Part shown: positions 21,983 through 44,167 of the stretch, piece after piece | Position numbering within the stretch: the stretch's first letter is position 1 | How the letters are laid out: the number at the start of each line of letters is the position of its first letter | Assembly: GCA_049792755.1 (NCBI GenBank) | Contig: JBARBF010000079.1 | Coordinates: forward strand, 5,218 to 69,217 | DNA: 64,000 nucleotides | Source: Bacteroidales bacterium | Lineage (GTDB): Bacteria; Bacteroidota; Bacteroidia; Bacteroidales; VadinHA17 | Direction: 5' to 3' | Program-made: the position numbers and the translations under genes | The notes under the pieces: generated by a model | The model's database searches: none | Told to the model about the DNA's origin: nothing | Seen by the model: the letters and a program-made list of their open reading frames with translations, nothing else

Positions 21983-22405
21983 ATGAAAAACTGTCTCTTG
22001 ACAATTTTATCTGTTTTTTTTTCAGTACAAACAATTGAATGTCAGCAAATCAGCGAATGGAGACTTGAAAACAGAACAGGTGTATCTGCCGAAATTGGCT
22101 TATTGAAGTCCTGGACTGAAACTGGTCCTGAAATGTTATGGTTTAATCAGGAATTGCCTACCGGATTTTCTTCTGTTACTTTTGGCAATAGTTCAATCTA
22201 CATTACGGGTAATCGGGATAAAAATGACGTTCTGGTTGCGATGGATACACTGGGCAAGATAAAATGGCAAACTCCATATGGCCGTTCATGGGAACAATCA
22301 TATCCCGACAGCAGGTGTGCTCATACTGTGGAGGTAATTCATAATAAGAAGCTCTATATCCGTCACGGCAAAGTGCTCATGGCATATGATATTAAAGACA
22401 AGTAG
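21983..22405 (+). pseudogene. truncated PQQ-like beta-propeller paralogue (N-terminal ~140 aa only)
   Basis: Signal peptide followed by EWRLENRTGVSAEIG...LWFNQELPTGFSSVTFGNSSIYITG. This is collinear with the first blades of the 452-aa paralogues but stops after 140 codons. It could instead be a genuine short protein. Confidence 0.4.
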
Positions 22406-22471
22406 TTAAAATCTTTATTACCTTTGGTGGCTAATGATTAAAATGAGATTAGCAAGTATTTGAAAGATAGG

Positions 22472-23923
22472 ATGTTGCAAGTCAGATATAGGAATATTCT
22501 TGTAGTGGCAGCAGTTGTAGTTTTCGTATCTGTGCTTCTGTGGTGGTTGCTCGTTAGCCAACCTCTTCCTGTAACAGAAAGGATACCAGGTATGGATGAC
22601 CGTCCCAAACAAGAAGCACGGTCTGACTCAGTTATTATAGGTCAGTTCTTTGACACGCTTGGGACTATGGATGCAGCAATTCCCGGAGACTGGCCCAGAT
22701 TCAGAGGGAAAGATCTTGATAATATCAGCAAGGATACTACACCACTCTCAGAATCATGGGATACCTCAGGACCTGCAATAATCTGGAGAACAACGCTTGG
22801 AGAAGGATATGCCGGCCCTTCAGTTCATAACGGCAGAGTTTATCTTCTTGACTATAATGAAAGAAAGAAAGCTGACGCACTCAGATGTTTTTCTCTTTCT
22901 TCAGGAAAGGAACTATGGCGAAGATGGTATTATGTTGATTTGAAAAGAAATCATGGTTACTCCAGAACTATACCTGCTGTAACAGACAAATATGTCGTCA
23001 CAATTGGTCCACGATCGCATGTTATGTGTGTTGATCCTGTCAATGGAAACATGTTATGGTCACATGATCTTGAAAAAGAGTTTGGTATCAGTGGAACAGA
23101 GAAGGGAAGGATCACACCTGATTTCTACACAGGTCAATGTCCCCTGATTGATAACGATGTAACTGTTCTGGCCCCCGGGGGGAAAGCATTGATGATAGGT
23201 GTGGATTGTGCCTCAGGCAAAATAGTATGGCAGACCCCTAACCCCGACTCCCTCAGGATGTCCCATGGTTCTATCATGCCAATGGTGATTCATGATAAAC
23301 GAATGTATGTATATAATGCGGTTGGAGGTGTCTGCGGTGTTTCTGCCGAAAAGCCAGATCTGGGCAAGTTATTGTGGATTACCACTGAATGGAGCCCTGC
23401 AACAACTGCAGCCTCTCCCCTTTTTCTTGGAAATAATGAAATAGCTGTCTTTGGGAGTTATGGAGCCGGTGGAGCAAGAATATCAATAAATTATGACGGA
23501 TCAAAATATTCAGCAACTGTCAGGGAACAGCATAAGGCAACCAATGGCCTTGCCAGCGATCAGCAGACACCTGTAATTATAGGTAATTACATATGGAGTG
23601 TTCTGCCTGAGAATGCAGGTGCATTGAAAAAGCAGCTGGTTTGTTATAAGAAATCTGATCTTTTGACAGCTGTCTGGTCTAGCGGAAAAGAAAACAGATT
23701 TGGACGGGGACTGGGTCCATACATTGTAAGCGGAGATAAACTATATCTTCTTGATGATGACGGAAACCTTTACTTTTATAAGATGGATGAGAATAAGGTC
23801 ATGTTAATTGCCAGCCATAAGGTAATAAAAGGCATAGAAGCTTGGGGTCCGATGGCGATCGCAGGTAAATACCTCATTCTGAGGGATGCAAGGAATTTAC
23901 TCTGTCTTAATATTGGTAAATGA
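22472..23923 (+). CDS. membrane-anchored PQQ-like beta-propeller repeat protein
   Basis: One N-terminal TM (ILVVAAVVVFVSVLLWWLLV). The family entry motif DWPRFRGKDLDN and repeated blade motifs (GRVYLLDY, GKELWR, GNMLWSH, GKIVWQT) follow. An ATG at 22472 is preferred to the TTG at 22460. Confidence 0.75.
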   Translation: MLQVRYRNILVVAAVVVFVSVLLWWLLVSQPLPVTERIPGMDDRPKQEARSDSVIIGQFFDTLGTMDAAIPGDWPRFRGKDLDNISKDTTPLSESWDTSGPAIIWRTTLGEGYAGPSVHNGRVYLLDYNERKKADALRCFSLSSGKELWRRWYYVDLKRNHGYSRTIPAVTDKYVVTIGPRSHVMCVDPVNGNMLWSHDLEKEFGISGTEKGRITPDFYTGQCPLIDNDVTVLAPGGKALMIGVDCASGKIVWQTPNPDSLRMSHGSIMPMVIHDKRMYVYNAVGGVCGVSAEKPDLGKLLWITTEWSPATTAASPLFLGNNEIAVFGSYGAGGARISINYDGSKYSATVREQHKATNGLASDQQTPVIIGNYIWSVLPENAGALKKQLVCYKKSDLLTAVWSSGKENRFGRGLGPYIVSGDKLYLLDDDGNLYFYKMDENKVMLIASHKVIKGIEAWGPMAIAGKYLILRDARNLLCLNIGK

Positions 23924-23929
23924 ACTAAA

Positions 23930-24856
23930 ATGAATAAAAAAACTATTACATTCATGTCTGTAGTGATCATTCTCGCTTTTATAGTGTATATGATCATTGA
24001 TATTGTTAAACCTGCAGGATCAGTTAATGCTGATCCGATAATTCCGCAAGGTCAGGATATAGCCGATGCATGGAAGATCTCCGGTGAATTTAAGGTGAAT
24101 GAAGGCTCCCTCAAAGCAGTTTCTGTAGCTCCATCAGGAAAAATTTATCTCGGTGGTGATTCATTTGTATCCTGCTATGACATTTCCATGAAGCTTATCT
24201 GGAATGTGAAAGCTCCCTATCCTGTTACCTCGCTTACGAACTGGGGCGACTCAATTTTTGCATCAACTTCTGAACAGATTCTGGTAATGAGTACTGACGG
24301 CAGAATCTTGAATGAATGGGGACCATTTGAGGATAGCTGTTTGATCACTTCTGTAGCCGCGAACGCAAAATATTTTGCTTTTGCAGATGCAGGAAATAAA
24401 ATAGTTTACGTTCTTGACAAAGGTGGTGAGGTTAAAACGATGATTGGTCAGAATGATAAACACTTTGTTATTCCAAGTCCTTATTTTGAAGTTGCTCTGG
24501 ATAAAAGCAATAATCTTTATGCGGCAAATACAGGCTTGCATCGCATCGAAACTTATACAATTGACGGGGTCTTAAAAAGTCAGTTTGGTGAAGCAGGTAT
24601 CGGCCCCGGAGCTTTTTGTGGCTGTTGTGCCCCACCTCATTTCGCGCTTATTCCTCAAGGCTTCGTGACATCAGAAAAAGGAATTAACAGGATTAAAATT
24701 CTAAATAAAAGTGGTGAATTTGTTGAGTATGTCAATTCAAAGAATAACTTTATTAAATCTGTGCCTCTCGCTCTTGCTTCTGCCGATGGAGTTACTATTT
24801 ATGCAGCCAATCCCGGTGATTCTAAACTTTATGTTTTTAACCGAAAAACCCCCTAA
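23930..24856 (+). CDS. membrane-anchored NHL/six-bladed-propeller-like protein
   Basis: 308 aa with one TM (FMSVVIILAFIVYMIIDIV). Repeated short beta-blade motifs are present (KIYLGGD, NKIVYVLD, NNLYAANTG, VTIYAANPG). It also has an unusual GPGAFCGCCAPPHF segment. It starts 6 nt after the upstream stop. Confidence 0.6.
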   Translation: MNKKTITFMSVVIILAFIVYMIIDIVKPAGSVNADPIIPQGQDIADAWKISGEFKVNEGSLKAVSVAPSGKIYLGGDSFVSCYDISMKLIWNVKAPYPVTSLTNWGDSIFASTSEQILVMSTDGRILNEWGPFEDSCLITSVAANAKYFAFADAGNKIVYVLDKGGEVKTMIGQNDKHFVIPSPYFEVALDKSNNLYAANTGLHRIETYTIDGVLKSQFGEAGIGPGAFCGCCAPPHFALIPQGFVTSEKGINRIKILNKSGEFVEYVNSKNNFIKSVPLALASADGVTIYAANPGDSKLYVFNRKTP

Positions 24857-25044
24857 ATTCCACCAAGGGGGGACTTACTCTCGATCATATTTTCAGCCTC
24901 CATATTGGAGGATAGGTGATCGGAAAAAAGAAAAAATGAAGAACTTACACAACTTGTCCCGCTTAGGCGGGAGAGGTACACAGTGAAGCACAGAGAGCCA
25001 CAGAAGGTAAAAACAAGTTAAGCCCCTCATGGAGGGTTTGGGGT
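24848..25044. repeat. inverted pair of GC-rich repeats flanking ~140 bp with internal hairpins
   Basis: ACCCCCTAAATTCCACCAAGGGGGGACTTA (24848-24877) and AAGCCCCTCATGGAGGGTTTGGGGTG (25019-25044). Internal hairpins are CCTCCATATTGGAGG and CCCGCTTAGGCGGG. Confidence 0.75.
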
Positions 25045-25097
25045 GAAAACAAGGGAGTCTGATGGAATTGAATCTTAAATTTTGAATTTTGAATGTG

Positions 25098-25271
25098 ATG
25101 ACCAGAAACGAACTGCTTAAGAAACTTGGGAGATATATTCTCCTGATACTGATCGCCATAATTGCTATATCACTCGGGAAAAAGGTATCCGGCGCAAATG
25201 AATGCTCAATCTGTCCTGGTAAAGGGATTTGCAATGGAAATGCAGATTGTAATAAGTATAAGGTTCGGTAA
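25098..25271 (+). CDS. small membrane protein with Cys-rich tail
   Basis: 57 aa from the ATG at 25098. One TM (YILLILIAIIAISL) is followed by CSICPGKGICNGNADC (4 Cys). Its stop is 2 nt before the next start. Confidence 0.5.
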   Translation: MTRNELLKKLGRYILLILIAIIAISLGKKVSGANECSICPGKGICNGNADCNKYKVR

Positions 25272-25273
25272 TT

Positions 25274-25843
25274 ATGAGTGAAAGTAAAAATAAATATCAG
25301 TCAAGGCGCGACTTCGTTAAATCTGCAGGAAAGTTGATTGTGGTTTTGCCATTGGTTGTTGTGCCTGTAATACTTATAAAGAAGACCTCGGTGAAAGGCT
25401 ATGTCTGGCAGATAGATCCTTTCAAATGCACTCAATGCGGACAGTGCAAGACTAATTGTGTGCTTACTCCCTCTGCCTCCAAATGTGTCCATGCGTTTCG
25501 TATGTGCGGCTATTGCGATCTTTGCGGAGGTTATCTCAGGCAGGGTGTAAAAAGAATCAGCACCGGTGCAGAGAATCAGTTATGTCCTACGGGGGCAATA
25601 ACTAGAAAATTTGTTGAAGAACCATATTTTGAGTATACCATTAATGAAAAACTATGCGATGGCTGTGCCAAGTGTGTGAAGGGATGCGGGGATTTCGGGA
25701 ACGGATCGCTTTATATGCAGATCAGACATGACAGATGCGTCAATTGCAACGAATGTTCAATTGCCCGTACCTGCCCGTCAAATGCAATATCCAGGATACC
25801 GGCTAGAGTTGCATATTTGCCAAAAGATGCAGTTAAAAAGTAA
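25274..25843 (+). CDS. Tat-signal polyferredoxin, NapG/MauM-like
   Basis: 189 aa. Has a twin-arginine motif SRRDFVKSAG plus a hydrophobic h-region. Four Cys clusters are present: CTQCGQCKTNC, CGYCDLCGG...CPTGAI, CDGCAKCVKGC and CVNCNECSIARTCP. Confidence 0.75.
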   Translation: MSESKNKYQSRRDFVKSAGKLIVVLPLVVVPVILIKKTSVKGYVWQIDPFKCTQCGQCKTNCVLTPSASKCVHAFRMCGYCDLCGGYLRQGVKRISTGAENQLCPTGAITRKFVEEPYFEYTINEKLCDGCAKCVKGCGDFGNGSLYMQIRHDRCVNCNECSIARTCPSNAISRIPARVAYLPKDAVKK

Positions 25844-25860
25844 GTTTTTAGAATTTAAAT

Positions 25861-25960
25861 CCATTAAACACAAAGATCGCAAAGGTTGAAGAACTAAAGT
25901 CACTAAGAAGCACAAATAATATGCCCGAATTACTCCACTTTAGGGGGGAAGGGGAGCAAA
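25861..25960. repeat. degenerate CACAAAG-family copy plus partial GC-rich repeat
   Basis: AACACAAAGATCGCAAAGG...AAGCACAAA, followed by CCACTTTAGGGGGGAAGGGGAGC. Confidence 0.45.
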
Positions 25961-25995
25961 CGTTAAAAGATAAACAAAAAACGAAAACCGATTAA

Positions 25996-27261
25996 ATGAA
26001 GAAAGCCCTTCCATATATAATATTCATTTTGCTTTTATTCTGGCACGTGGCTATTATGGCCCAGGACCGGTTTCCACGTCCTGAATTTGAATCAGGTCAT
26101 GTTTATCCGACCAATCAGATGCCTGTTCCAAGAGCTCAGGTATGGGAATATTTTGACGTGGTCGTCCTAATAGCTGCACTGGCAGTAACAACCTGGCTGG
26201 CATTGAAAAAACGTTCACGACAGGGTTTGGTATGGATGTCACTCTTTTCCCTTGCATATTTTGGCTTCTACAGGGAGGGCTGCATTTGTGCCGTTGGCTC
26301 AGTTCAAAATGTATCCCTCGCATTATTTAATACAGGATATTCTATACCACTTACAGCACTTTTGTTCTTTATAATTCCTTTGTTATTTGCTCTTGCCTAC
26401 GGACGAGTTTTCTGTGCAGGAGTTTGCCCTCTCGGAGCTATCCAGGAACTAACGGGTATTAGGCCGGTCAAGCTTCCAAAATTTATTGAAATATTACTGG
26501 CAGCTGTGCCTTTCATTTATCTTGCGGTTGCAATTCTGTTCTCTTCAACTAACAGTCAATTCATTATATGCAGGTATGATCCTTTCGTTGGGATATTCAG
26601 GCTCGATGCCCCGTATACAATGATAATTTTCGGAGCTCTGTTACTTTTAGCCGGGGTATTTGTAAACAGACCATACTGCAGATTCCTTTGTCCGTATGGC
26701 GTTCTTTTAAATATTTTTTCAAGATTTGCAGGTAAGCATCTGACAATAACCCCTGCAGAATGCACAAATTGCAGGCTTTGTGAGGAGGTTTGCCCTTATA
26801 ATGCTATAATCCCTTCAAATCTGGAAGAAAGATTGGAAGAGCCGGAGAAGTCAAGAAAACATTTCATTCAGTATTTTGTTCTTGTTCCGGTATTTGCAGT
26901 CGCCGGAGCTTTATTACTCTACAACATGGCTCCTGTTTTGTCAGGAGCAAACAGTACTGTAAGACTGGCCAGAGAAATCCGGACAGAAAAGAAAAGCGGT
27001 ATTGAATCACCATTGAAAGATGTAATTGCTTATAAAGAATCGGGGAAAACTGAAACGAAACTATATAATGAAGAAGAATTAATCATCGGACGTTTCAGGA
27101 ATTATTCACCCTGGGCCGGGGCATTCCTTGGAATATCATTCGGAATAGGTATGATATCTCTGACAATAAAGAGCAGACGAACCGAATATAAGCCCAACCA
27201 GGGTAAGTGTTACAGCTGTGGCAGATGTTTTAAATATTGTCCGATTAAAGTAAAGAGCTGA
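25996..27261 (+). CDS. membrane polyferredoxin of the NapH/MauN/NosR/CcoG (CX3CP) superfamily
   Basis: 421 aa with multiple TMs. Two CX3CP motifs are present (RVFCAGVCPLGAIQE, RPYCRFLCPYGVL). Two 4Fe-4S motifs follow (CTNCRLCEEVCP, CYSCGRCFKYCP). Confidence 0.8.
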   Translation: MKKALPYIIFILLLFWHVAIMAQDRFPRPEFESGHVYPTNQMPVPRAQVWEYFDVVVLIAALAVTTWLALKKRSRQGLVWMSLFSLAYFGFYREGCICAVGSVQNVSLALFNTGYSIPLTALLFFIIPLLFALAYGRVFCAGVCPLGAIQELTGIRPVKLPKFIEILLAAVPFIYLAVAILFSSTNSQFIICRYDPFVGIFRLDAPYTMIIFGALLLLAGVFVNRPYCRFLCPYGVLLNIFSRFAGKHLTITPAECTNCRLCEEVCPYNAIIPSNLEERLEEPEKSRKHFIQYFVLVPVFAVAGALLLYNMAPVLSGANSTVRLAREIRTEKKSGIESPLKDVIAYKESGKTETKLYNEEELIIGRFRNYSPWAGAFLGISFGIGMISLTIKSRRTEYKPNQGKCYSCGRCFKYCPIKVKS

Positions 27262-27262
27262 G

Positions 27263-28957
27263 ATGAAGTTTAATTTTAATGAAAAGGATATAAGTATTCT
27301 CAAAGTTGTGAGTCATGTCTCGGGAGGGTTTGCTCTTATTGTAGCATTGACTATGATCTTCAGTCTAGTACAGCTTAAAACAATAAATCCCCTCGATAAT
27401 CCGGTATTGCTATCGGCTAAGGAACAATATGATAAGGATCCTTCGAATGCAGCCAGGGCAGAGCAGGTAAGGGCAATGGATCTGATGGCAAGGAAAGCTT
27501 ACTTCAGTTCAAGATGGCAGGTAGAGACAGGTTCCTACCTGCTTATTGCGGGAGTCGTCATCTTTATTATTTGTCAGAGAATGATCGCAGGGAGCGAAAA
27601 GCTCAAACCTGTTGTTGCTGGTACAAAACCCGACTCAGTACTGAACCGGGAAAAAAACAGAAAATACCTTATTTCAGCAGCTGCTTTTATTCTGACAGCA
27701 GCTATTGTTTCATCGTTTTTCCTGCGCGCCGATTTACCAGATATCTCAGGAAAAGCTCCTGCATCATCGAAGAAACATGAAAGTAGCAATGAAAAAGCCT
27801 CTGCACCGGATAAAACAAACTGGCCTTCTTTTCGCGGACAGGATAGTCGTGGATCAGCTGGAGGAAAAGGATACCCTACTGAATGGGATGCCGCCACAGG
27901 AAGTAATATCGCATGGAAGCTTGAGATACCTAAAAAAGGAAAGAGCTCCCCAGTCATATGGGGAGATAAGCTTTTCTTAACCGGCGCTCAGGATAAGATA
28001 TGTGAAGTCTATTGCATTGATAAAAAATCGGGAAAAATATTATGGACAGGATCTGCCTCTGATATCCCCGGCGAACCTGCTGTTTTGCCTAAAACTGATC
28101 CAGACGCCGGACTTGCTGTTTCAACAACTGCTACTAATGGGAAAGTGGTTTGTGCAGTCTTTTCAAATGGGAACCTGGTATGTTTCGATATGGATGGGAA
28201 AAAGAAATGGATGAAAAATATAGGTGTTCCCGAAAACAGCTATGGCTATGCTTCCTCACTCATGATTTATAAAGATCTTCTGCTTGTACAGTTCGACAGC
28301 AATACAAAAATTTCGCTAAAAGGAATTGATCTGGAGTCGGGTGATCAGAAGTGGGAAACTATCCGACATGGACACGCCGTTTGGTCTTCTCCTGTTCTTG
28401 CTCATTTCAGGGGAAACCCCGAACTGGTTATAAACGGAAATCCTTATGTGAGCGGATATGATCCATTAACTGGCAATTTGCTCTGGGAAGTTGAATGCAT
28501 GAGCGGAGATGTCGCACCTTCAGTAGCTGTAAACAGTACAATGGCGTACGCCGTAACTGACTATGCGAAACTGGTGGCAATTAAACCCGACAATGGCGTA
28601 TCAATTGTATGGGAAGATAATACATATACCCCCGATGTTTCAAGTCCTGTTGCTACCGATCAGTACCTGTTTGTATCAACTGGAAATGGTGATGTTGCAT
28701 GTTATAATGCGATGAAAGGAGATACTTTGTGGACACACTATTTCCAGGATCCTTTCTATGCCTCTCCTTTAATAGCGGACGACATGGTTTATCTTCTTGA
28801 CAGAAGTGGTAAGACGCATATTGTTAAAATTGGACCCACCTTCAAACTTATTGCTGAATCGGCTTTGGGTGAAGCAGCAGACTGTTCACCGGCATTTTCA
28901 GACGGTAAGATATATATCCGGGGCCGGAAGAATCTTTATTGCATTTCTAAAAATTGA
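27263..28957 (+). CDS. 3-TM-anchored PQQ-like beta-propeller repeat protein
   Basis: 564 aa. Three N-terminal hydrophobic helices and a Ser/Lys-rich linker precede NWPSFRGQDSRGSAGG and the blade motifs (GDKLFLTG, GKILWTG, GDQKWET, GNLLWEV, GDTLWTH). The ATG lies 1 nt after the upstream stop. Confidence 0.8.
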   Translation: MKFNFNEKDISILKVVSHVSGGFALIVALTMIFSLVQLKTINPLDNPVLLSAKEQYDKDPSNAARAEQVRAMDLMARKAYFSSRWQVETGSYLLIAGVVIFIICQRMIAGSEKLKPVVAGTKPDSVLNREKNRKYLISAAAFILTAAIVSSFFLRADLPDISGKAPASSKKHESSNEKASAPDKTNWPSFRGQDSRGSAGGKGYPTEWDAATGSNIAWKLEIPKKGKSSPVIWGDKLFLTGAQDKICEVYCIDKKSGKILWTGSASDIPGEPAVLPKTDPDAGLAVSTTATNGKVVCAVFSNGNLVCFDMDGKKKWMKNIGVPENSYGYASSLMIYKDLLLVQFDSNTKISLKGIDLESGDQKWETIRHGHAVWSSPVLAHFRGNPELVINGNPYVSGYDPLTGNLLWEVECMSGDVAPSVAVNSTMAYAVTDYAKLVAIKPDNGVSIVWEDNTYTPDVSSPVATDQYLFVSTGNGDVACYNAMKGDTLWTHYFQDPFYASPLIADDMVYLLDRSGKTHIVKIGPTFKLIAESALGEAADCSPAFSDGKIYIRGRKNLYCISKN

Positions 28958-32473: not shown

Positions 32474-32487
32474 TTAAGAGAAAGCCA

Positions 32488-32518
32488 AAGTCCTCCATTT
32501 GGTGGATTTAGGGGGTGG
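32488..32518. repeat. GC-rich repeat copy
   Basis: AAGTCCTCCATTTGGTGGATTTAGGGGGTGG. Confidence 0.7.
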
Positions 32519-33687: not shown

Positions 33688-33693
33688 TCGCTC

Positions 33694-33781
33694 GAAAATC
33701 AATTTAATTACCCCAGCCCCAAGGGGAGTAAATTGATTTTCTTCGCTCCCCTTGGGGTCGGGGTAAACGAAGAAAATCAAT
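33694..33781. repeat. interleaved palindromes A-B-A'-B'-A'' built around a GC-rich repeat pair
   Basis: A is GAAAATCAATTT (33694-33705). B is TTACCCCAGCCCCAAGGGGAG (33708-33728). A' is AAATTGATTTTCTTCG (33730-33745). B' is CTCCCCTTGGGGTCGGGGTAA (33746-33766). A'' is CGAAGAAAATCAAT (33768-33781). Confidence 0.75.
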
Positions 33782-33821
33782 GGGGTTCGTTACGAGAGGT
33801 TCATAGAGAATATCACATATT

Positions 33822-35111: not shown

Positions 35112-35126
35112 TCTATAATATTAATA

Positions 35127-35198
35127 CCTTCGTGTTACTTAGTGCAACCCTTTGAGCGCCTTTGGGATTAATTTTTTTACCACGAAGTAACACAAAGG
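35127..35198. repeat. CACAAAG-family palindromic element
   Basis: CCTTCGTGTTACTTAGTG ... CCACGAAGTAACACAAAGG, forming imperfect inverted arms. Confidence 0.55.
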
Positions 35199-35227
35199 AA
35201 AAACTGTCAACTACTCAGATTAAAAAA

Positions 35228-35893: not shown

Positions 35894-35917
35894 ATTGAAT
35901 AGAATCACAGAATTACC

Positions 35918-38900
35918 ATGCCACGGGAGCTCGGAATAATTATACAATCAATTAAATTCTATAAAAAGCCTGTTTTATACCAGGTTTTAATAATTGTTTT
36001 GCTTTGTGCTGTTATAACCGGATCACTTCTTACCGGTAACTCTCTCAGACAAAGTCTGAAAAAATCTGCCTCGGAGCGCCTGGGTAATGCTGATATTCTA
36101 ATAAGCTCCGGAATAAGGTATTTTGATGATGGACTTGTTCAGAGAATGAAAAACTTCTCTGACATATTATGCACAGGGGTACTTGAAGCTACAGGTTATT
36201 GCCAAAACCTGAATTCACAAAAAGGAGCTTTCAATACGCATATTTATGGTATAGGAAAAGATTTTTTTATATTTCAGGGACATGATTCATTAACTATCAA
36301 ACCAGGAGAAATTGCTGTTAATAAACAGCTTGCTGATTATCTCAGACTTAAACCGGGCGACGACCTTATAATAAGATTTAAAGCTGTAAGTGATATACCT
36401 GCCGATGCGCCATTTGCGCCGGGAGGAGATGCCGGGATGTCAGTCGTGATGAGGGTCGGATCCATTCTTGGACCTGCTCACACGGGAGATTTTTCCCTGT
36501 CTATTAGTCAGATAACACCCATGAATATCTTTATGAATCTGTCGGATATTGATTCTGACCGGGGAAGCAATCTTAGAATAAACAGATTAATTATAAAAAG
36601 GAAAAACAACAATTCGTTTAAACTGGCAGCTGATGTTTTAAAACATTTTCTGAGACTAAATGATATTGGCTTAAGGCTAAGGTCGATAGAAAAGACCGGA
36701 GAAAATGAAATTATTTCTGACAGGATTTTTATTGATAAATCAGTTTTAAAAGAGATAACTGATCTTTTACCAATGTCCGCTCCAGTTATTACTTACCTGG
36801 GAAACAGGTTTGATGACCGAAACAGATCAACTCCCTATTCATTTATTTCTGCATTGCCTTCTTCTCTGTATTCCGGTATAGCTGAAGGCAATGAGATGAT
36901 AATAAACCGGTGGATGGCAAATGATCTTTCTGCAAAAGAGGGAGATACTATCAAATTGTACTGGTATTCACCTGATTCATTAAATAAGTTAATCGAAAAA
37001 AGCAGTGACTTTATAGTAAAACGGATTGTTGATATGAAGGGGATCTGGTCAGATTCTCTCCTGATGCCTGATTTTCCGGGAATTGCCGGAAAAGAATCAT
37101 GTTCTGACTGGGATGCCGGTGTGCCGATAAAAATGCATCAGATCCGTACGAAAGATGAGGATTACTGGAACAAATACAGGGGCACACCAAAAGCCTTCAT
37201 CAGCTATACCACAGGAAGGAAGATATGGGGAAATAATTTTGGTCCTGCAACATCTATTCGCTATCCTGCAGGCATGACCAAAAAGGCTATTGAAAACAAG
37301 CTTAACGGGTCACTTGATCCTTTGAAGATGGGTTTCATGATGACAGATTTGTCAGGTGAATCTGTAAAAGCGGCAAATGAGAGTGTTGATTTCAGCACCT
37401 TGTTCCTGAGTCTTGGTTTTTTTCTGATTCTTTCTTCATTGGTCTTATTGTCATTTGCAGTCTCCTTGTATTTTGATTCTAAAAGAATACATATCAGCGT
37501 TTTACATGCACTTGGTTTTAAGAGCAGCAGGATTTCCCGATTATTATTTATTGAGGCCGCCTTCATCGGAATGGCAGGATGTTCAATTGGAACATTATCA
37601 GGTTACCTGGTAAATATTTTTATTACAAGGGCTCTGAATACCGTTTGGAATGGGGCTGTTCAGACCGACACTCTGAAAGCATACTTTAATCTCTCGCCTC
37701 TTCTTTCAGGTTTTTTTCTGACACTTATTACAATTCTGGTGCTAATGTTTGTGAAGGTTAAGCGATTTCTTAAAATTTTGAATAAAAGCGGAAAAGAGAT
37801 ATACTCTATTCCTTCAGGCAGGAAAAACAGATTTTTTTTGATTATCTCATCAGTTGTTACAGTTTCATTATTTCTGTTCTCACTATTATCCGGTTCCCGG
37901 CAAATCTCTTTCTCATTTGCTTCAGGAACAGCTCTGTTATTGACTTTGGTTTTATTATGGAGGCAGTATTATATAGGGAGTCCAGATACAAACTCAGGCA
38001 GAATTATGAACAGGAAACGGTTGTTGCATCGATATTATTCGCTTAATCCGTCAGGTGCAGTAACTCCAATCCTGTTCATAGCTGCAGGAATTTTTACTCT
38101 TTTCATCACAGGAGTAAACAAGATGAATTCTGATGAAAAAATGATTAAACGGGCAGGCGGTACGGGAGGATATTTACTGTGGTGTGAAAATACAATACCG
38201 GTGAAAGAAGATATGAATTCAGAATCAGGAAAAAAATCATTTGGACTGGACAATGATCAACTTTCGGATTTGAGTTTTGTGCAGATGAAGAAGTATTCGG
38301 GAAATGACGCAAGTTGTCTGAATCTTAACCATATTACCACTCCTCCTCTGATTGGAATTGATCCGGATGATTTCATAGCAAAAAAATCATTCTCATTTTC
38401 AAAAGTACTTGATATTAAAACTTTTAAAAACCCATGGCAATATTTAAATATTCCTCCTGAAAACAATACACTGTATGGCATAGCTGATCAGACTGTCCTT
38501 GACTGGGGGTTGAAACTGAAGCCCGGAGATACTTTGATTTTAAGGGCTGAAAATGGTCAGCCTGTGAGAGTTATTATTGCTGCCGGATTACAATCATCTG
38601 TTTTTCAGGGTAATTTACTCATTGGAAAAGAAAACTTTAGCAGGTATTTTCCTTCTGTTTCAGGTAGTCAGATATTTCTTGCTGATGGCAATAATGCATT
38701 GACTGAACAATATAAGAGCACCTTAGAAGATAGGCTCGAAAGATATGGTACTTACATTGAAAAAACATCTTCTCGTCTGGCATCATTTTACAAAGTCACC
38801 AACACTTACCTCTCTGTCTTTAGTGTCTTCGGAGCTTTCGGAATGATAATCGGCGTTGCAGGACTTGGATTTGTGCTTCTGAGGAACTATAATCAGCGGA

Positions 38901-39181
38901 AAAAAGAATTTGCTGTCATGCTGGCTGCGGGCTTTCGTACAAAAAAAATCCGGAGAATGATTTTGTCTGAACAATTGAAAATTTTGATTGCCGGGGTACT
39001 GGCAGGAGTTATTTCAGCTCTTCTTGCTACTTCATCCTCAATAAAAAATTATCAGGATATTCCCTGGTTGTATTTGTCCCTGATGATTCTTGCAATAATT
39101 TTCACAGGTTTAATTACAATGTTTCTTTCAGTGCGATCAGTTACAAAAGGTACGCTGATCGCCAGCCTGAAAAAAGAATAG
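35918..39181 (+). CDS. very large FtsX-family ABC permease (two FtsX modules, large extracytoplasmic domains)
   Basis: 1087 aa. Ten or more hydrophobic helices fall in two clusters (~480-650 and ~960-1080). It lies immediately downstream of the ATPase gene. Confidence 0.8.
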   Translation: MPRELGIIIQSIKFYKKPVLYQVLIIVLLCAVITGSLLTGNSLRQSLKKSASERLGNADILISSGIRYFDDGLVQRMKNFSDILCTGVLEATGYCQNLNSQKGAFNTHIYGIGKDFFIFQGHDSLTIKPGEIAVNKQLADYLRLKPGDDLIIRFKAVSDIPADAPFAPGGDAGMSVVMRVGSILGPAHTGDFSLSISQITPMNIFMNLSDIDSDRGSNLRINRLIIKRKNNNSFKLAADVLKHFLRLNDIGLRLRSIEKTGENEIISDRIFIDKSVLKEITDLLPMSAPVITYLGNRFDDRNRSTPYSFISALPSSLYSGIAEGNEMIINRWMANDLSAKEGDTIKLYWYSPDSLNKLIEKSSDFIVKRIVDMKGIWSDSLLMPDFPGIAGKESCSDWDAGVPIKMHQIRTKDEDYWNKYRGTPKAFISYTTGRKIWGNNFGPATSIRYPAGMTKKAIENKLNGSLDPLKMGFMMTDLSGESVKAANESVDFSTLFLSLGFFLILSSLVLLSFAVSLYFDSKRIHISVLHALGFKSSRISRLLFIEAAFIGMAGCSIGTLSGYLVNIFITRALNTVWNGAVQTDTLKAYFNLSPLLSGFFLTLITILVLMFVKVKRFLKILNKSGKEIYSIPSGRKNRFFLIISSVVTVSLFLFSLLSGSRQISFSFASGTALLLTLVLLWRQYYIGSPDTNSGRIMNRKRLLHRYYSLNPSGAVTPILFIAAGIFTLFITGVNKMNSDEKMIKRAGGTGGYLLWCENTIPVKEDMNSESGKKSFGLDNDQLSDLSFVQMKKYSGNDASCLNLNHITTPPLIGIDPDDFIAKKSFSFSKVLDIKTFKNPWQYLNIPPENNTLYGIADQTVLDWGLKLKPGDTLILRAENGQPVRVIIAAGLQSSVFQGNLLIGKENFSRYFPSVSGSQIFLADGNNALTEQYKSTLEDRLERYGTYIEKTSSRLASFYKVTNTYLSVFSVFGAFGMIIGVAGLGFVLLRNYNQRKKEFAVMLAAGFRTKKIRRMILSEQLKILIAGVLAGVISALLATSSSIKNYQDIPWLYLSLMILAIIFTGLITMFLSVRSVTKGTLIASLKKE

Positions 39182-39188
39182 CAGAGGA

Positions 39189-40547
39189 TTATTTTTTCCC
39201 TACTGCGACCAGCCATTTCTGAGTTCTGAATATAATCATACCGTCTGTGATAGCAGGAGCTGTCATACAAATATCATTCAAAGGTATCTCAGCCAGAAGT
39301 TTAAAATCATCACCGTCTTTAACGATATAAACCGTTCCCACCTCATCTACAATAAATATCTTTCCATCTGAAGCAACAGGAGAAGCTATAAAGCTTTTTG
39401 TCTGGCCAAGTTTAGCATTATAAATTTCCTTGCCTGTAAGAGGATCGAGACAGATTAAGACTCCATTCCAGTTAACGTTGTAAAGATGATTTTTATAAAG
39501 CAGAAGGGTATGCATATATGAACCCCCTCTTGGCAAACTCCATTTCACGAATTCATTGGATGTTTCAGATTCCTTCAGTGTAATATCTCCAACAGCATTA
39601 GTCTTGACAGCAATTATTGGCGAACTTCTTCCGTGGGCACTGTTGAAATAGATCATATCATTTCCTATTATCGGAGTAGGTATCTGAATATCTCCTCCAC
39701 CTGACATTTTCCAGATCTCCTTTCCTGTCTGGAGATCATATCCGCCACGGTTCTTATAACCGTTTAGTACAACGTATGTTTTACCGGCATTTGTATATAT
39801 GTTTGGAGTGCACCACCCCGGATATTCGTCACGTTGAGTTTTCCAGAGTTCTTTTCCGGTTTTAACATCATATGCCGCAACAAAAGAGTTCTCAAGTACA
39901 TCACACTGGATTATCAAAATACCTTTATAAATTACAGGAGAACTGGCAAATTCCCATTCGGCGGACTTTACCATGAAAAACACTGATTTAAGCAACCCGA
40001 AGTTTTTCTGCCACAGAAGATTCCCTTTCATATTATAACAAAACAGACCTTCCGATCCGAAAAAGGCAACAACATATTTGCCATCGGTAGCAACTGATGA
40101 ATTAGCATGAGTGGATTTCGGATGACGTTTCATCCTGGGGATTCCTTTACAGGCTGTCTTCTCCCAAATTATTTTACCACTTTTCTTATCAATGCAGAAT
40201 ACTTTCCATTCATGAACCGATGAGTCCTGAACCGGTGATATATCTCCATATATCCCGGGTTTAAATCCTTCTTTGTCGGCCTGACTTATAGCACTGGTTA
40301 TGAATATTTTATTATCCCAGATCACCGGACTTGAAATTCCCATACCAGGGATCTCTTTCTTCCATTTTACATTTAGCATTTTAGAAAAATCAAATGAATC
40401 AGGAAGATTGGCGTTATCCAAAACCCCGGATGACATTTTTCCACGATATGAAGTCCATTGCCTGTCAGGATTAACCTGACATGAAACCTCATTTATTATT
40501 AAGATCAAAAAAAATACTATTAATAAGATTTCAAGAAATTTTTTCAT
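39189..40547 (-). CDS. secreted PQQ-like beta-propeller repeat protein (tandem paralogue 1)
   Basis: 452 aa with a signal peptide. Contains QWTSYRGKMSSGVLDN and RHPKSTHANSS, and ends ...TDGMIIFRTQKWLVAVGKK. Confidence 0.8.
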   Translation of the reverse strand: MKKFLEILLIVFFLILIINEVSCQVNPDRQWTSYRGKMSSGVLDNANLPDSFDFSKMLNVKWKKEIPGMGISSPVIWDNKIFITSAISQADKEGFKPGIYGDISPVQDSSVHEWKVFCIDKKSGKIIWEKTACKGIPRMKRHPKSTHANSSVATDGKYVVAFFGSEGLFCYNMKGNLLWQKNFGLLKSVFFMVKSAEWEFASSPVIYKGILIIQCDVLENSFVAAYDVKTGKELWKTQRDEYPGWCTPNIYTNAGKTYVVLNGYKNRGGYDLQTGKEIWKMSGGGDIQIPTPIIGNDMIYFNSAHGRSSPIIAVKTNAVGDITLKESETSNEFVKWSLPRGGSYMHTLLLYKNHLYNVNWNGVLICLDPLTGKEIYNAKLGQTKSFIASPVASDGKIFIVDEVGTVYIVKDGDDFKLLAEIPLNDICMTAPAITDGMIIFRTQKWLVAVGKK

Positions 40548-40571
40548 AGGTTAAATTATAAAGAAAATATG

Positions 40572-41930
40572 CTACTTTTTTCCCACGGCTATAAGGTAAT
40601 TCTGAGTTCTGAAGAAGATCATTCCATCAGTGATGGCAGGAGCTGTTAAACATACATCATTCATAGGTATTTCGGCAAGTTGTTTAAAAGAAACACCATC
40701 TTCGATAATGAAGACAGTTCCCTGTTCGTTGACAATGTATATTTTCCCGTCTGAAGCGACAGGAGAAGCAATAAAGCTTTGAGTATTTCCGAGTTTAGCA
40801 TTGTAAAGAATTTTTCCCGAGAGAGCTTCATAGCATACTATTGTACCGTTCCAGTTAACATTATAAAGATGATCTTTATAAAAAAGCAAAGTATGTATAT
40901 ATGAGCCTCCGTGAGGAATGCTCCATACAACATATTCGTTAAGAATACCTGTTGGTTTAGTCGTAATATCACCTGACGCATTTGTTTTAATTGCGTATAT
41001 AGGTGATGAAGGACCGTGGGCACTGTTGAAAAATATCAGATTGTCACCGGTAACCGGAGTCGGTATTGGAACATCTCCCCCGCCTGACATTCTCCATATT
41101 TCATTCCCTGTTTCAAAATCATATCCTCCACGATGTTTGTATCCATTTACTGCGATTCGTATTTTATCGCCGTCTTTATAAATATTTGGTGTACACCAGC
41201 AGGGATATTCATCTCTTTTGATTTTCCATTTTTCCTTTCCTGTTTTCAAATCGTAGGCAGCCAGAAATGAATTTTCCAGAACATCACATTGAATGATAAC
41301 AATACCATTATATATAATAGGTGAACTGGCAAACTCCCATTCGGCTGCGGGATAATCGTATGCAACAGATTTCAGCACTCCAAAATTCTTCTTCCAGATA
41401 AGATTTCCCTCATAATCATAACAATACAATCCTTCGGATCCGAAAAAGGCTACTGCAAATCTGCCATCGGTAGCCATTGAAGCATTTGCATGTGTCGATT
41501 TAGGATGACGTCTGATTTTAGGAATACCAGTGTATGCTGTTCTTTTCCATATTGTTTTACCTGAGTATTTATCAATACAGATAACTTTCCATTCATGAAC
41601 TGAGCTGTCAGCTACCGGCATACCTTCTCCGTAAATACCTGTCTTTATTCCCTGATTATCTGATTTACTTACTGAAGTTGTAATAAATAGTTTATCGCCC
41701 CAAATTACAGGGCTCGACAAACCAAGACCCGGTATCCTGGTTTTCCACCTGACATTTATCATTTTCCGGAAGTCAAATGATTCAGGGAGGTTAGCATTAT
41801 CGAGCACACCTGAAGCCAAATATCCCCTGAATCCTGTCCATTGACGTTCAGGCTTTATTTGTCCGTCAATGCATATTGTCAGAGTTAACAATGCAATAAT
41901 TGATCCTGCCGACAGTATATTGATTTTCAT
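40572..41930 (-). CDS. secreted PQQ-like beta-propeller repeat protein (tandem paralogue 2)
   Basis: 452 aa. By eye it is collinear with 39189-40547 without indels and roughly two-thirds identical. Contains QWTGFRGYLASGVLDN and RHPKSTHANAS. Confidence 0.8.
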   Translation of the reverse strand: MKINILSAGSIIALLTLTICIDGQIKPERQWTGFRGYLASGVLDNANLPESFDFRKMINVRWKTRIPGLGLSSPVIWGDKLFITTSVSKSDNQGIKTGIYGEGMPVADSSVHEWKVICIDKYSGKTIWKRTAYTGIPKIRRHPKSTHANASMATDGRFAVAFFGSEGLYCYDYEGNLIWKKNFGVLKSVAYDYPAAEWEFASSPIIYNGIVIIQCDVLENSFLAAYDLKTGKEKWKIKRDEYPCWCTPNIYKDGDKIRIAVNGYKHRGGYDFETGNEIWRMSGGGDVPIPTPVTGDNLIFFNSAHGPSSPIYAIKTNASGDITTKPTGILNEYVVWSIPHGGSYIHTLLFYKDHLYNVNWNGTIVCYEALSGKILYNAKLGNTQSFIASPVASDGKIYIVNEQGTVFIIEDGVSFKQLAEIPMNDVCLTAPAITDGMIFFRTQNYLIAVGKK

Positions 41931-42220
41931 ATTTTTACAGGGATTATTGCCCGGACATAACTGACACTTTAATTCTATTCAATATCCAGTTGATATATGA
42001 AATAAGTCTTATAAGCATTTCTAATTATGATAGCTGAGCTGATTTTTTTCTGTTAAAAGGCGTCAATTAATATGGATAGTTAAAAAACATCAGGTGTAAA
42101 AATAATCTAAATGTGCATTATGTCAGCAAAGCATTAAAATAAATTAATTATCATTGAAGATTATTGAATCCTATATTTAGGAGTTGTGAAAATCAAAACA
42201 TTTAATGATATATGCCTTAA

Positions 42221-44167
42221 ATGAACGTTAAAATTAATCATTTTATTAATCTGTTAATAATCTTTGGTTTTGGATTGATTCCAGCTATTATTTGCCAGTT
42301 TTTTACCGAAAAACCTGTCAGCAGGCATATTCATATAAGGAGTTTCAGGTATGGGAAGGATCCTTATGTTATAAGATGCAACAGGGGAGACACTCTTCTT
42401 TTGACTTTTTCAACAGACGATACCGGACATTCCTTTTTTCTGCAGGAGTTTGACATTGATGTCAAAATCAGCCCTTCCAGCGATGAGGTTACAGTTTTTA
42501 AAACAAGTGATCCGTCCAGTAGACCGGTTATTATGAAAGAAGTAACACTTGTAGCCAGGCATAACGGGATATATAATTACATAGTATCAAAAAGCAACTA
42601 CCGCTGCCATGTCTGGTGCGGGCCAATGCATGCATTTGAACAAGGCAAGCTTATCCTGTTGCCTAATACACTGCTGATATTCAGTCTTGGAAGCCTTATC
42701 GGGATATTTTTTATCTGGCTTGTAGCAATTTTCAGAAATGTCAAAAAGGAAAATATTACAGACAACGGGAAAGAAGGGTACAAAGATATATTATCGGGTC
42801 ACTCTTTCCTGAGGAAAATAGTTATATCGAGGTACACACAGGCGACTCTGACAATTATTACGATGGTAATGATTTACATTGTGATCCTGACTTCTGTTTT
42901 TGGCACCAAAGTTTCAGGGAGGAACATAGGAGTACTTCTGATGTGGGCCGTATGGTTATTTGCACTTGTAGCGGTTATTACCCCGTTTTTTGGAAGATTC
43001 TGGTGCACTATCTGTCCATTACCGTTTTTCGGTGATCTTATTCAGAGAAAATCATTCTTTAATCCGATTAAAGGCAAAACAAAAAAATATAACAATAAAT
43101 TTTCAGGGCTGTTCCTGAAGTGGCCAGAGTGGCTAAAAAATGACTGGTTAAGATTGCTGGTCTTTTTGATTCTTGCAACTTTTTCAACAACCCTGGTTGC
43201 AACTCCTTTTATTTCAGGTGTGACAGTAATTATGCTTATGGTTGTTCCAACGATTATGTCTGGAATATGGGAACTGAGAGCATTTTGTCGTTATGTGTGC
43301 CCGGTAAGTGTCTTTGTCGGACCTTTTTCGAGGATGAGTACATTATCGCTCAGAAATAAGTCGCAGGATGTCTGCGACCAGTGCAAGCCGCACTATTGTG
43401 AGAAAGGAAATACAGCAGGATGGGCTTGTCCATATGGCCTCAATGTCGGGAAAATGAGGGAGAACTCTGATTGCGGACTTTGCCTGGAATGTCTGAGAAG
43501 CTGCTCTTATAATAATGTATCTCTGTATGCCCGGCCTTTTGCGACAGAAAAAGGGTCACGGAATTTAAGTGAAGGATGGATGACGATGGCAAGTTTTACA
43601 ATTTCTATAATATATAGTATTCTGTACCTGGGACCGTGGCCTGTAGTTCGCGACTATGTAAACATTATGGATAAACATAACTGGGGTTTATTCGGGATAT
43701 ATACTCTTGTTATGTGGGCATTTGTTCTGATAATTGTTCCGGGGATTATATATCTCCTTTCATATGCCGGTTTGCGACTTTCAAAATATAAAAGATCCGT
43801 GAAACAGGTATTTCTTGAGAATGCGGGCTCCCTCCTTCCTTTCGCACTCATGAACTGGATAGCATTTGTAATTCCAATGCTATTCGTGAATGTTACTTTT
43901 ATAAAACAATCATTATCCGATCCGTTCGGATGGGGATGGGATTTTTTCGGAACAGCTAATACACCTTGGCATCAATTTATACCTCAATATATTCCCTGGC
44001 TTCAGGCAATAGCTGTACTGGCCGGGTTATACCTTAGTTTAAGAAACATCAGAAGGTCGGCCATAGTCCTTGAATTGAATCCAAAGAAGACTTTAATGCT
44101 TAGTTTACCGATAAGTTTTTTTCTGGCAGGTGTGACTACACTAATGTTGTTCTTCTTCACAAACTGA
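42221..44167 (+). CDS. membrane polyferredoxin (CX3CP family) with an N-terminal periplasmic CuA/COX2-like cupredoxin domain
   Basis: 648 aa. After the N-terminal TM come DDTGHSFFLQEFDIDVK and YRCHVWCGPMHAFEQGKLIL (C-x3-C-x3-H-x2-E). CX3CP motifs RFWCTICPLPFFGD and RAFCRYVCPVSVF follow. Fe-S motifs CDQCKPHYCEKG...CPYG and CGLCLECLRSC are present, with about 5 further TMs after them. Confidence 0.7.
   Translation: MNVKINHFINLLIIFGFGLIPAIICQFFTEKPVSRHIHIRSFRYGKDPYVIRCNRGDTLLLTFSTDDTGHSFFLQEFDIDVKISPSSDEVTVFKTSDPSSRPVIMKEVTLVARHNGIYNYIVSKSNYRCHVWCGPMHAFEQGKLILLPNTLLIFSLGSLIGIFFIWLVAIFRNVKKENITDNGKEGYKDILSGHSFLRKIVISRYTQATLTIITMVMIYIVILTSVFGTKVSGRNIGVLLMWAVWLFALVAVITPFFGRFWCTICPLPFFGDLIQRKSFFNPIKGKTKKYNNKFSGLFLKWPEWLKNDWLRLLVFLILATFSTTLVATPFISGVTVIMLMVVPTIMSGIWELRAFCRYVCPVSVFVGPFSRMSTLSLRNKSQDVCDQCKPHYCEKGNTAGWACPYGLNVGKMRENSDCGLCLECLRSCSYNNVSLYARPFATEKGSRNLSEGWMTMASFTISIIYSILYLGPWPVVRDYVNIMDKHNWGLFGIYTLVMWAFVLIIVPGIIYLLSYAGLRLSKYKRSVKQVFLENAGSLLPFALMNWIAFVIPMLFVNVTFIKQSLSDPFGWGWDFFGTANTPWHQFIPQYIPWLQAIAVLAGLYLSLRNIRRSAIVLELNPKKTLMLSLPISFFLAGVTTLMLFFFTN

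Follow-up and report, generated by a model that had tools for sequence, protein, structure and literature searches.

The window analysed here is a 64,000-nucleotide (nt) stretch of contig JBARBF010000079.1 from a Bacteroidales bacterium, and its positions 22460-39181 hold a gene cluster that probably encodes one membrane-spanning oxidoreductase of the Bfu type, carrying NAD(P)H/ferredoxin electrons (those of reduced nicotinamide nucleotides and ferredoxin) to an acceptor in the periplasm. This reading is based on a gene order conserved within Bacteroidales and in eight distant contexts, on the match of the g08 and g09 products to subunits of the Bfu family, on the twin-arginine translocation (Tat) motifs of g05 and of the counterparts of g04 together with the transmembrane (TM) anchors or signal peptides of the propellers, and on the invariant polar and metal-ligand-type residues of propeller g02 and the Cys-Cys pair of propeller g03, which are candidate active sites. 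Judged by gene-order comparison, the cluster is real, tightly packed and conserved in at least four phyla of uncultured anaerobes.

Gene content and packing of the cluster

Genes of the window, labelled g01-g16, were read from an open reading frame (ORF) listing together with Pfam and NCBIfam scans, which agreed with the gene positions given in an earlier reading of the same DNA (the original prediction). That reading had described a 22-kb island of propeller and iron-sulfur (Fe-S) genes that form an NADH- or quinol-linked electron conduit. The conserved genes are as follows:

g02, 22460-23923, + strand: 487-amino-acid (aa) PQQ_2 propeller with an N-terminal TM anchor, strongly diverged (PQQ_2 7.8e-30)
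g03, 23930-24856, + strand: 308-aa TM-anchored NHL-type propeller, no Pfam hit
g04, 25098-25271, + strand: 57-aa TM peptide with 4 Cys (CxxCPGxGxCxGxxDC) and a Tat-like N-terminus
g05, 25274-25843, + strand: protein with an SRRDFVK Tat signal and 16 Cys in four [4Fe-4S] motifs, Fer4 families
g06, 25996-27261, + strand: NapH/NosR-like membrane polyferredoxin with two Fer4_5 domains, two CX3CP and two CxxCxxCxxxCP motifs
g07, 27263-28957, + strand: 564-aa protein with a 3-TM N-terminal domain (DLMARKAY) and a periplasmic PQQ_2 propeller
g08, 28954-31362, + strand: NuoE, thioredoxin-like [2Fe-2S], NuoF and two C-terminal [4Fe-4S] regions
g09, 31355-32473, + strand: Fer2_4, Fer4_20 and Fer4_Nqo3 domains
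g10, 32572-33687, + strand: secreted 371-aa eight-repeat PQQ_2/ACSF4-type propeller
g11, 33822-35111, + strand: GT4 (GT-B) glycosyltransferase
g12-g13, 35162-39181, + strand: MacB/LolCDE-type ATP-binding cassette (ABC) ATPase and a 1087-aa duplicated 10-TM FtsX permease

Intergenic distances in the core were +6, +2, +1, -4 and -8 nt, in keeping with the tight junctions described earlier; g04 ended 2 nt before g05, g06 and g07 were separated by 1 nt, and g07 overlapped g08 by 4 nt. The propeller entry motif W-x-x-[FY]-R-G, which the original prediction had proposed, gave 6 matches over all six frames, 5 at the N-termini of propellers, against 0.33 in shuffled sequence. The claimed tally of seven propellers and an eighth, NHL-like one was corrected to six of the PQQ_2 type, a truncated copy (g01) among them, and one NHL propeller (g03), the NHL type of the latter being upheld by AlphaFold2 (AF2) modelling and Foldseek.

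The absence of a catalytic redox enzyme, a CxxCH motif, a NosZ-like centre and pqq genes, also claimed earlier, was borne out by the scans of the island and of the window ORFs covered. No island protein contained CxxCH, and Pfam scans of most large ORFs of the window, a few lying outside them, found no pqq genes, cytochromes, molybdopterin domains or hydrogenase domains. Exact look-ups of the window's own proteins returned no database record.

The cluster in Bacteroidales and the extent of the unit

Searches with g07 returned 1779 relatives at E <= 1e-10, the best 120 of which shared 70-91% identity with it, almost always had a length of 564 aa and, where a source was named, came from metagenome-assembled genomes (MAGs) of Bacteroidales/Bacteroidia. 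An orthologue of g07 was present in 238 GTDB species genomes; nearly all of the best 80 were labelled as uncultured Bacteroidota MAGs and one as Chloroflexota, and the habitats of these carriers were fens, permafrost, lake sediment, soils and digesters. Neighbours were counted as orthologues at an identity of at least 40% on the same strand as g07, and only in loci long enough to show the position concerned. By this rule, g07 was adjoined by g02 in 61/61 loci, g03 in 63/63, g05 in 68/68, g06 in 70/70, g08 in 67/68, g09 in 59/64, g10 in 58/58, g11 in 54/55 and g12 in 55/55, and 65 related loci contained g04, always with its 4 Cys. The co-localisation of propeller and Fe-S genes in related genomes, on which the island idea depended, thus held with counts of 61/61 to 70/70 for several genes and, beyond them, in the eight distant contexts described below.

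The glycosyltransferase and the exporter, mentioned earlier as items interleaved with the redox genes, proved to be more than that, and the GT4 (g11, 54/55) and MacB-type exporter (g12-g13, with g12 at 55/55) are conserved accessory members of the cluster. Synthesis of a low-molecular-weight thiol by the GT4 was considered and rejected, its scores being 45 bits against a cut-off of 274 for BshA and 43 against 463 for MshA. The g11 product carries an N-terminal CGNC motif (GSFYCGNCYRD, within 33822-33900) that is unusual for GT4 enzymes.

The conserved unit spans about 22460-39181 (g02-g13) and ends there because g14-g16 failed the conservation test, which also led us to reject the whole 22-kb span as one unit. 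The earlier island therefore stands as a conserved cluster at 22460-39181, and its remainder at 39189-44167 is lineage-specific or belongs to another module. The genes outside the unit are:

g01, 21983-22405, + strand: 140-aa N-terminal remnant of a PQQ_2-type propeller with the degenerate entry motif EWRLENR, no Pfam hit
g14 and g15, 39189-41930, - strand: two 452-aa secreted PQQ_2 propeller paralogues
g16, 42221-44167, + strand: 648-aa protein with a cupredoxin-like N-terminal domain and a NapH-like membrane domain, Fer4_5

Full-length counterparts of g01, of about 405-437 aa, occupy the matching position in related and distant loci, so most of the gene, of which 423 nt are left, has been deleted in the window. 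The paralogues g14 and g15 were found downstream of g13 only in relatives of the window's lineage and are lineage-specific additions outside the core.

Both membrane polyferredoxins described earlier were found, but the second, g16 (648 aa), lies outside the conserved core. Its NapH match was weak (29.4 bits), and its cupredoxin-like motifs, TGHSFFL and CGPMHAFEQG, were read by eye. Of 227 metagenomic relatives of g16, only those of at least 70% identity adjoin island genes, and its usual partner is a divergent TM-anchored 465-aa FG-GAP propeller, encoded directly upstream in 44 of the 51 loci, among L089-L168, with enough upstream sequence and nearby in most of the remaining 7. Given this usual partner and an adjacency to the island restricted to close relatives, g16 is a separate two-gene module, and its partner, of which the window holds no trace, has been lost there. 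The g16 and FG-GAP pair shows a NapH-like protein and a propeller combined a second time, independently of the cluster.

The gene order in distant phyla

An exhaustive search of 50%-identity representatives with g07 gave 7210 matches at E <= 1e-10, and the 3-TM N-terminal domain with its DL(L/M)ARKAY motif was common to 138 of the 150 top clusters. In a profile search, carriers of g07 were found in Planctomycetaceae, Sedimentisphaerales, candidate division KSB1, Aminicenantes and Acidobacteriota. We read eight independent distant contexts (L083, L084/L085, L086, L087, L088, L169, L170 and L171), all of which share the order (soluble propeller)-g02-g03-(small peptide)-g05-g06-g07-g08-g09. The small peptide was called in L084/L085, L087, L088 and L171 and recovered by translation in L083 and L086; in L169 and L170 it was neither called nor checked. 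In five of these contexts, identity to the window was 36-50% for g02, 31-38% for g03, 46-65% for g05, 40-54% for g06, 30-40% for g07 and 53-59% for g08, and the 4-nt overlap between g07 and g08 recurred in L083, L084 and L087.

The accessory genes are linked in part of these contexts, g10 in L084, L087, L169 and L170, the GT4 in L084, L087, L169, L170 and L171, and the ABC-FtsX pair visibly in L084, L087, L170 and L171; in L083, L086 and L088, the GT4 and ABC genes do not adjoin the cluster. In Aminicenantes, translational coupling joins the ABC-FtsX pair to the redox genes, and in L171 the GT4-ABC-FtsX trio sits upstream of the cluster, relocated yet still linked, so the linkage withstands rearrangement. 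Counterparts of g07 in Planctomycetota-type loci (L083, L088 and L171) are 994-1019 aa long and include an additional, fused propeller that has a W-P-x-F-R-G entry motif of its own, a fusion that suggests a physical association of the propellers.

IS200-like transposases (Y1_Tnp) are inserted between g07 and g08 in L086 (11937-12371) and between g08 and g09 in L088 (16575-17414), and two small uncharacterised ORFs lie between g07 and g08 in L088. The cluster is otherwise intact around these insertions, which come from two different phyla. No recognisable catalytic redox enzyme was found in any of the eight distant contexts, and profile scans detected no known catalytic subunit in any context, as the original prediction would have it.

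A predicted Bfu-type core in the cytoplasm

The Bfu family is defined by a BfuBC core that binds NAD(H) and ferredoxin, a third substrate entering through BfuA, and clusters B2-B5 are missing from its non-bifurcating homologues (Schut et al. 2022, PMC9304861). Residues 194-798 of g08 aligned with residues 7-595 of NfnB from C. saccharolyticus (9n5u_B, 602 aa) at 3.8e-206, with the N-terminal [2Fe-2S] Cys motifs, the SCGKCTFCR...LCGLG segment, a CxxxC motif and both C-terminal CxxCxxCxxxCP motifs in register. The next solved relatives were 9bov_B and 8oh5_B (584-aa B subunits, about 1e-199), which were deposited as 'NADH dehydrogenase (Quinone)' and 'NAD-reducing hydrogenase subunit HoxF'; we take 8oh5 to be the StnABC transhydrogenase of Sporomusa ovata, on which the search output is silent. 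They were followed by the NiFe hydrogenase B subunit 7t2r_B and by HydB 7q4v_B, 8a6t_B (deposited as electron-bifurcating) and 7p5h_B, and all of these Nfn/Hyd-type B subunits outranked NuoF of complex I as matches to g08.

Pfam placed Complex1_51K (3.7e-43) and NADH_4Fe-4S (2.3e-31) in the BfuB domain of g08 and 2Fe-2S_thioredx (2.1e-48, residues 28-170) in a BfuC domain fused to it, and motif alignment located the extra BfuB clusters, an N-terminal [2Fe-2S] and two C-terminal [4Fe-4S]. By these matches g08 is a predicted fused BfuC-BfuB protein with flavin mononucleotide (FMN), an NADH site and six Fe-S clusters. Residues 1-181 of g09 matched the N-termini of 9bov_A, 8oh5_C and NfnA (9n5u_A), and g09, which in the window lacks a catalytic domain, is a putative BfuA-like Fe-S subunit. 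The BfuA-like protein occurs in two forms, an all-Fe-S form of 358-372 aa with a two-[4Fe-4S] Fer4_Nqo3 region in Bacteroidales and the L084 lineage, and a form of 524-558 aa with a GltD/NfnB-type Pyr_redox_2 domain for flavin adenine dinucleotide (FAD) and NADP in L083, L086, L087, L088, L169, L170 and L171 (KSB1, Aminicenantes and Planctomycetota).

These matches leave the domains of the NuoE-NuoF fusion and NuoG-N-like pair of the original prediction in place and amend their identity to a Bfu-type core (HydBC/NfnBC/StnBC). Of the proposed conduit, the part that survives, as an inference, is a dedicated route from the cytoplasm to the propellers. With a Bfu-type core, ferredoxin is a likely partner, as is NADPH outside Bacteroidales, and a simple NADH or quinol link is therefore too narrow.

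Putative electron carriers in and beyond the membrane

The g06 product is a membrane polyferredoxin in which a CxC motif, C140xxxC144P, C228xxxC232P, C256xxCxxCxxxCP and C405xxCxxCxxxCP are invariant across phyla; its periplasmic N-terminus is conserved, and two additional C-terminal TM helices precede the last cluster motif. It matched NapH at 9e-17 and NosR at 3e-14, both under the curated cut-offs, and scored 61.4 bits against a cut-off of 213 (TIGR02163) and 60.1 against 234 (NF007013) with the NapH/MauN models. The g05 product combines a Tat signal with 16 invariant Cys in four full [4Fe-4S] motifs; no NapG-type model in NCBIfam matched it, so the resemblance of g05 to NapG is one of architecture only. 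Counterparts of g04 in other phyla carry the twin-arginine motifs SRREFLK, TRREWL or NRREFL followed by Cx5-6CxxCx5C, and the Bacteroidales proteins have the motif T-R-x-E-F-L-K. These twin-arginine motifs and the Cys pattern of the counterparts suggest that g04 is a small subunit loaded with a cofactor and handled by the Tat system.

Propellers with candidate active sites

The propellers carry TM anchors or signal peptides, and g02 is the one with the most distinctive conservation. Across 67 orthologues from several phyla, 120 positions of g02 are invariant, among them H165, S168, R169, T170, H187, M189 and C190, as well as Q226, C227, M267, H269, S271, M275 and Q368. This set falls at the x-x-P position before the innermost strand of successive blades, a placement with which the AF2 secondary structure agrees, and because of that position within the repeats, the His/Cys/Met/Arg set may line the mouth of the central channel. 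The best match of the g02 profile in the PDB reached 4e-5, which leaves it almost without a relative among solved structures, and we regard g02 as the best candidate for the catalytic periplasmic subunit.

A second catalytic candidate is g03, through its vicinal Cys-Cys pair C232-C233 (G-C-C-(N/A)-P), which is invariant across phyla; T247, E249, K250, R254 and K256 are among its invariant polar residues. The AF2 model of g03 was a six-bladed NHL propeller with a predicted local distance difference test score (pLDDT) of 86; its top Foldseek matches, the NHL domains of TRIM2/3/71 and Brat, were exclusively non-enzymatic, and a profile search against the PDB returned no enzyme relative.

The signature gene of the cluster is g07, whose N-terminal domain is conserved as strongly as its propeller. 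The g10 propeller is of a more generic kind, its profile resembling the designed propellers Cake, Bagel and Scone and matching designed Cake proteins at 1e-121, BamB at 1e-27, alcohol dehydrogenases dependent on pyrroloquinoline quinone (PQQ) at 1e-19 and tetrathionate hydrolase at 3.5e-15.

Against the BamB equivalog TIGR03300, the propellers scored 30, 68, 132, 48 and 48 bits (cut-off 285), and against the PQQ alcohol dehydrogenase model TIGR03075 22-70 bits (cut-off 480). Their domains measure about 370-400 aa, compared with 470-690 aa in the solved PQQ dehydrogenases matched; a lipobox Cys is absent from g02, g07 and g10, and TM helices hold g02 and g07 in the inner membrane. We therefore rejected BamB orthology, on the scores, the TM anchors and the missing lipobox, as well as an identity as PQQ dehydrogenases, on the scores and the absence of pqq genes from the ORFs scanned, which settles the doubt raised with the original prediction as to whether these are ordinary BamB proteins. 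A NosZ-like His-rich centre was also rejected, the propellers showing no such pattern, and so was a Cys-rich subunit of the methylamine- or quinohemoprotein-amine-dehydrogenase type with radical S-adenosylmethionine (SAM) maturation, the cluster containing neither a radical SAM protein nor a protease.

A proposed electron route and its alternatives

Taking these observations together, we propose that the cytoplasmic BfuBC flavoprotein and the BfuA-like g09 would bind NAD(H) and ferredoxin and exchange electrons with a third partner, which may be the cytoplasmic [4Fe-4S] domain of the NapH-like g06 in place of a soluble catalytic domain. Electrons would then cross the membrane from g06 to the Tat-exported g05, possibly with the help of g04, and g05 would pass them to a periplasmic assembly of membrane-anchored propellers, where the chemistry may take place at the invariant His/Cys/Met/Arg set of g02, at the vicinal dithiol of g03, or at both. 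The g07 protein probably docks the periplasmic parts to the membrane proteins.

We are less confident about the direction, for which we favour an outward flow that would discharge NADH and reduced ferredoxin onto a periplasmic acceptor, because the inward route needs a donor of very low potential and no suitable cofactor is present. With similar reserve, NADPH may be a donor in the phyla whose BfuA keeps its FAD domain, and fermentative anaerobes might gain a way besides H2 to dispose of electrons. Since the periplasmic parts are thiol-rich, our leading guess for the acceptor is a sulfur, polysulfide or disulfide compound, with humic quinones or metals as alternatives.

Several points weigh against such a complex. 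Both the acceptor and the direction of electron flow are conjectural, every carrier seen is an uncultured organism, and the case is comparative and sequence-based. The docking of BfuA/B on g06 is presumed, the literature searched described no Bfu core that feeds a NapH-type protein, and even in the Nap and Nos systems the NapH-type transmembrane electron route is not known to be established. Neither a cofactor nor a metal site could be assigned to any propeller from sequence and models; the AF2 model of g02, made from a paralogue alignment, had a pLDDT of 63, and the clustering of its invariant residues rests on repeat periodicity alone. Outside Bacteroidales, g08 and g09 resemble a complete, self-sufficient NfnABC transhydrogenase and could act alone as one. 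Lastly, in one Bacteroidia MAG locus (L068, 493-3400), the single clear exception to the conserved order in Bacteroidales, g07 is followed immediately by g10, without Bfu genes between them.

The same complex might run inward, the propellers oxidising a substrate and electrons passing through g05 and g06 to the Bfu core to yield NADH and reduced ferredoxin. The propellers do belong to the PQQ-like superfamily, Bfu enzymes are reversible (PMC9304861) and NapH-like modules have been tied to periplasmic oxidases such as ExaA (PMC8238504), but the cluster is without a cofactor family known to handle low-potential donors, the PQQ-dehydrogenase scores were 22-70 bits against 480, and no pqq genes were found in the ORFs scanned. 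The energetic demand is steep as well. To reduce NAD+ and ferredoxin together, a donor must lie near or below about -385 mV, as H2, formate, CO and aldehydes do, and we consider inward flow unlikely.

We would likewise call it improbable that the Fe-S chain serves maintenance or maturation, keeping a cofactor, metal centre or thiol pair of the propellers active while the chemistry on the substrate is not redox. Maintenance roles have been proposed for NosR/NosGH, MauM/MauN, CcoG and DsbD, and the architecture here resembles NapGH, MauMN and NosGH; the vicinal Cys-Cys of g03 and the four Cys of g04 would suit thiol redox control, and an exporter and a glycosyltransferase in the same operon hint at work on the envelope. 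Set against this are the heavy investment that a Bfu-type core with FMN and about ten Fe-S clusters represents and the lack of any non-redox enzyme signature in the propellers by profile searches. The maintenance systems that we know of draw on quinol or thioredoxin and not on a bifurcating flavoprotein, which also counts against this role.

Chance or inheritance within the lineage could have brought together an envelope set (propellers, GT4 and ABC exporter) and a soluble Nfn/Hyd-like flavoprotein with a NapGH-like quinol module. This would account for the NfnABC-like appearance of g08 and g09 outside Bacteroidales, for the L068 locus without them, for L083, L086 and L088, where the GT4 and ABC genes are not beside the cluster, and for generic propellers such as g10 that resemble scaffolds of the BamB type. 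It is nonetheless very unlikely, as gene order is kept across at least four phyla at 30-59% identity, coupling spans the supposed boundary (1 nt between g06 and g07, a 4-nt overlap of g07 with g08), and the linkage withstands the L171 rearrangement and the transposase insertions of L086 and L088.

That the propellers are ordinary BamB orthologues or PQQ-dependent dehydrogenases, as the pipeline labels 'outer membrane protein assembly factor BamB' and 'PQQ-binding-like' and the Pfam PQQ_2 matches would have it, can be practically dismissed in view of scores of 30-132 bits against 285 (TIGR03300) and 22-70 against 480 (TIGR03075), the TM anchors of g02 and g07, the lack of a lipobox Cys in g02, g07 and g10 and the absence of pqq genes from the ORFs scanned.

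A Bfu-type complex reaching into the periplasm hence remains the reading that we prefer. A more ambitious combination of its parts is one that we put forward only tentatively and hold to be rather doubtful as a whole, namely that the complex would be the first periplasm-directed member of the Bfu family, in which transmembrane confurcation or bifurcation feeds a new heme- and molybdopterin-free propeller reductase whose chemistry takes place on the His/Cys/Met channel set of g02 and the NHL vicinal dithiol of g03. If true, this would amount to an unrecognised form of anaerobic electron disposal, whether respiratory or by facilitated fermentation, and a widespread one among the uncultured Bacteroidales, Aminicenantes, KSB1 and Planctomycetota that live in peat, permafrost, sediments and digesters.

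Non-coding sequence and neighbouring genes in the window

An Rfam scan of the window gave no match. The longest non-coding stretch within the core is the 241-nt gap between g03 and g04 (24857-25097), which likewise had no Rfam match, and a strong G+C-rich hairpin at about 24849-24870 overlaps the stop codon of g03. In a scan for sigma-70 promoters and terminators, promoter-like matches occurred near the level of shuffled sequence; Bacteroidota promoters differ from the sigma-70 type scanned.

Among the large ORFs scanned, the remainder of the window encodes MnmE, a GH31 protein, pyruvate formate-lyase, AsnB, an efflux operon and rhamnose genes. A lysine-2,3-aminomutase-like radical SAM gene followed by two D-Ala-D-Ala-ligase-like ATP-grasp genes (58864-62088) may form a small beta-lysine or peptide-ligation cluster. 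What looks like a separate envelope-stress or efflux unit lies at 7308-12234, where two DUF4097 proteins and a second MacB_PCD/FtsX permease come after an anti-sigma-like zf-HC2/HEAT protein.

Discussion

The cluster is like a hybrid of a Bfu enzyme and a conduit of the NapGH/NosGH/MauMN type. It shares with the Bfu family the BfuBC core of g08, the N-terminus of g09 and, outside Bacteroidales, the Nfn-type FAD/NADP domain, but the window's lineage lacks the catalytic BfuA domain, and the genes lie amid those of membrane, Tat-exported and periplasmic proteins. The membrane-bound Bfu types predicted by Schut et al. are linked to Mbh and Nuo, with no mention of the periplasm, propellers or PQQ, and 17 BfuB clades are listed without an assigned function (PMC9304861).

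With NapGH, NosGH and MauMN the cluster has in common a Tat-exported ferredoxin with four [4Fe-4S] motifs beside a CX3CP membrane polyferredoxin. Unlike those systems, its g06 falls under the cut-offs and has extra TM helices, electrons would enter from a cytoplasmic flavoprotein and not only from quinol, and there is no known terminal enzyme.

NapH-like modules have been linked to the periplasmic propeller enzymes NirS and ExaA, and the flavinylated ones carry FMN-binding domains and ApbE (Meheust et al. 2021, PMC8238504). As with the flavinylated NapH-like proteins, NosR and PceC, the NapH-like protein of the cluster appears as a modular transmembrane carrier for varied periplasmic oxidoreductases, but the periplasmic carrier here is an Fe-S ferredoxin, and neither FMN_bind nor ApbE was found in the cluster proteins or the distant contexts. 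The propellers share the eight-repeat PQQ_2 fold and the W-x-x-F-R-G entry strand with BamB, PQQ alcohol dehydrogenases and tetrathionate hydrolase; they differ from BamB/PQQ propellers in their sub-cut-off scores, in the TM anchors of g02 and g07 and in the invariant set that is g02's own.

A full-text literature search, incomplete in its coverage, found no description of the cluster. The new element would be a periplasm-directed third module on a complex of the Bfu family, and the chemistry in the periplasm stands a real chance of being new as well. The cluster suggests a candidate function for a Bfu group still without an assigned third substrate, and it offers a test case for NapH-type movement of electrons through the membrane and two periplasmic propeller families with conserved, unexplained features resembling active sites.

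The organisms that carry the cluster are uncultured anaerobes that abound in fens, thawing permafrost, lake and marine sediments and digesters and are usually modelled as plain fermenters. Within one Bacteroidales lineage, 238 GTDB species genomes have the orthologous cluster, and several other phyla have related ones. A complex that exports reducing power to the periplasm could alter how the energy metabolism of these organisms is read, and with it their links to sulfur, iron and humic cycling.

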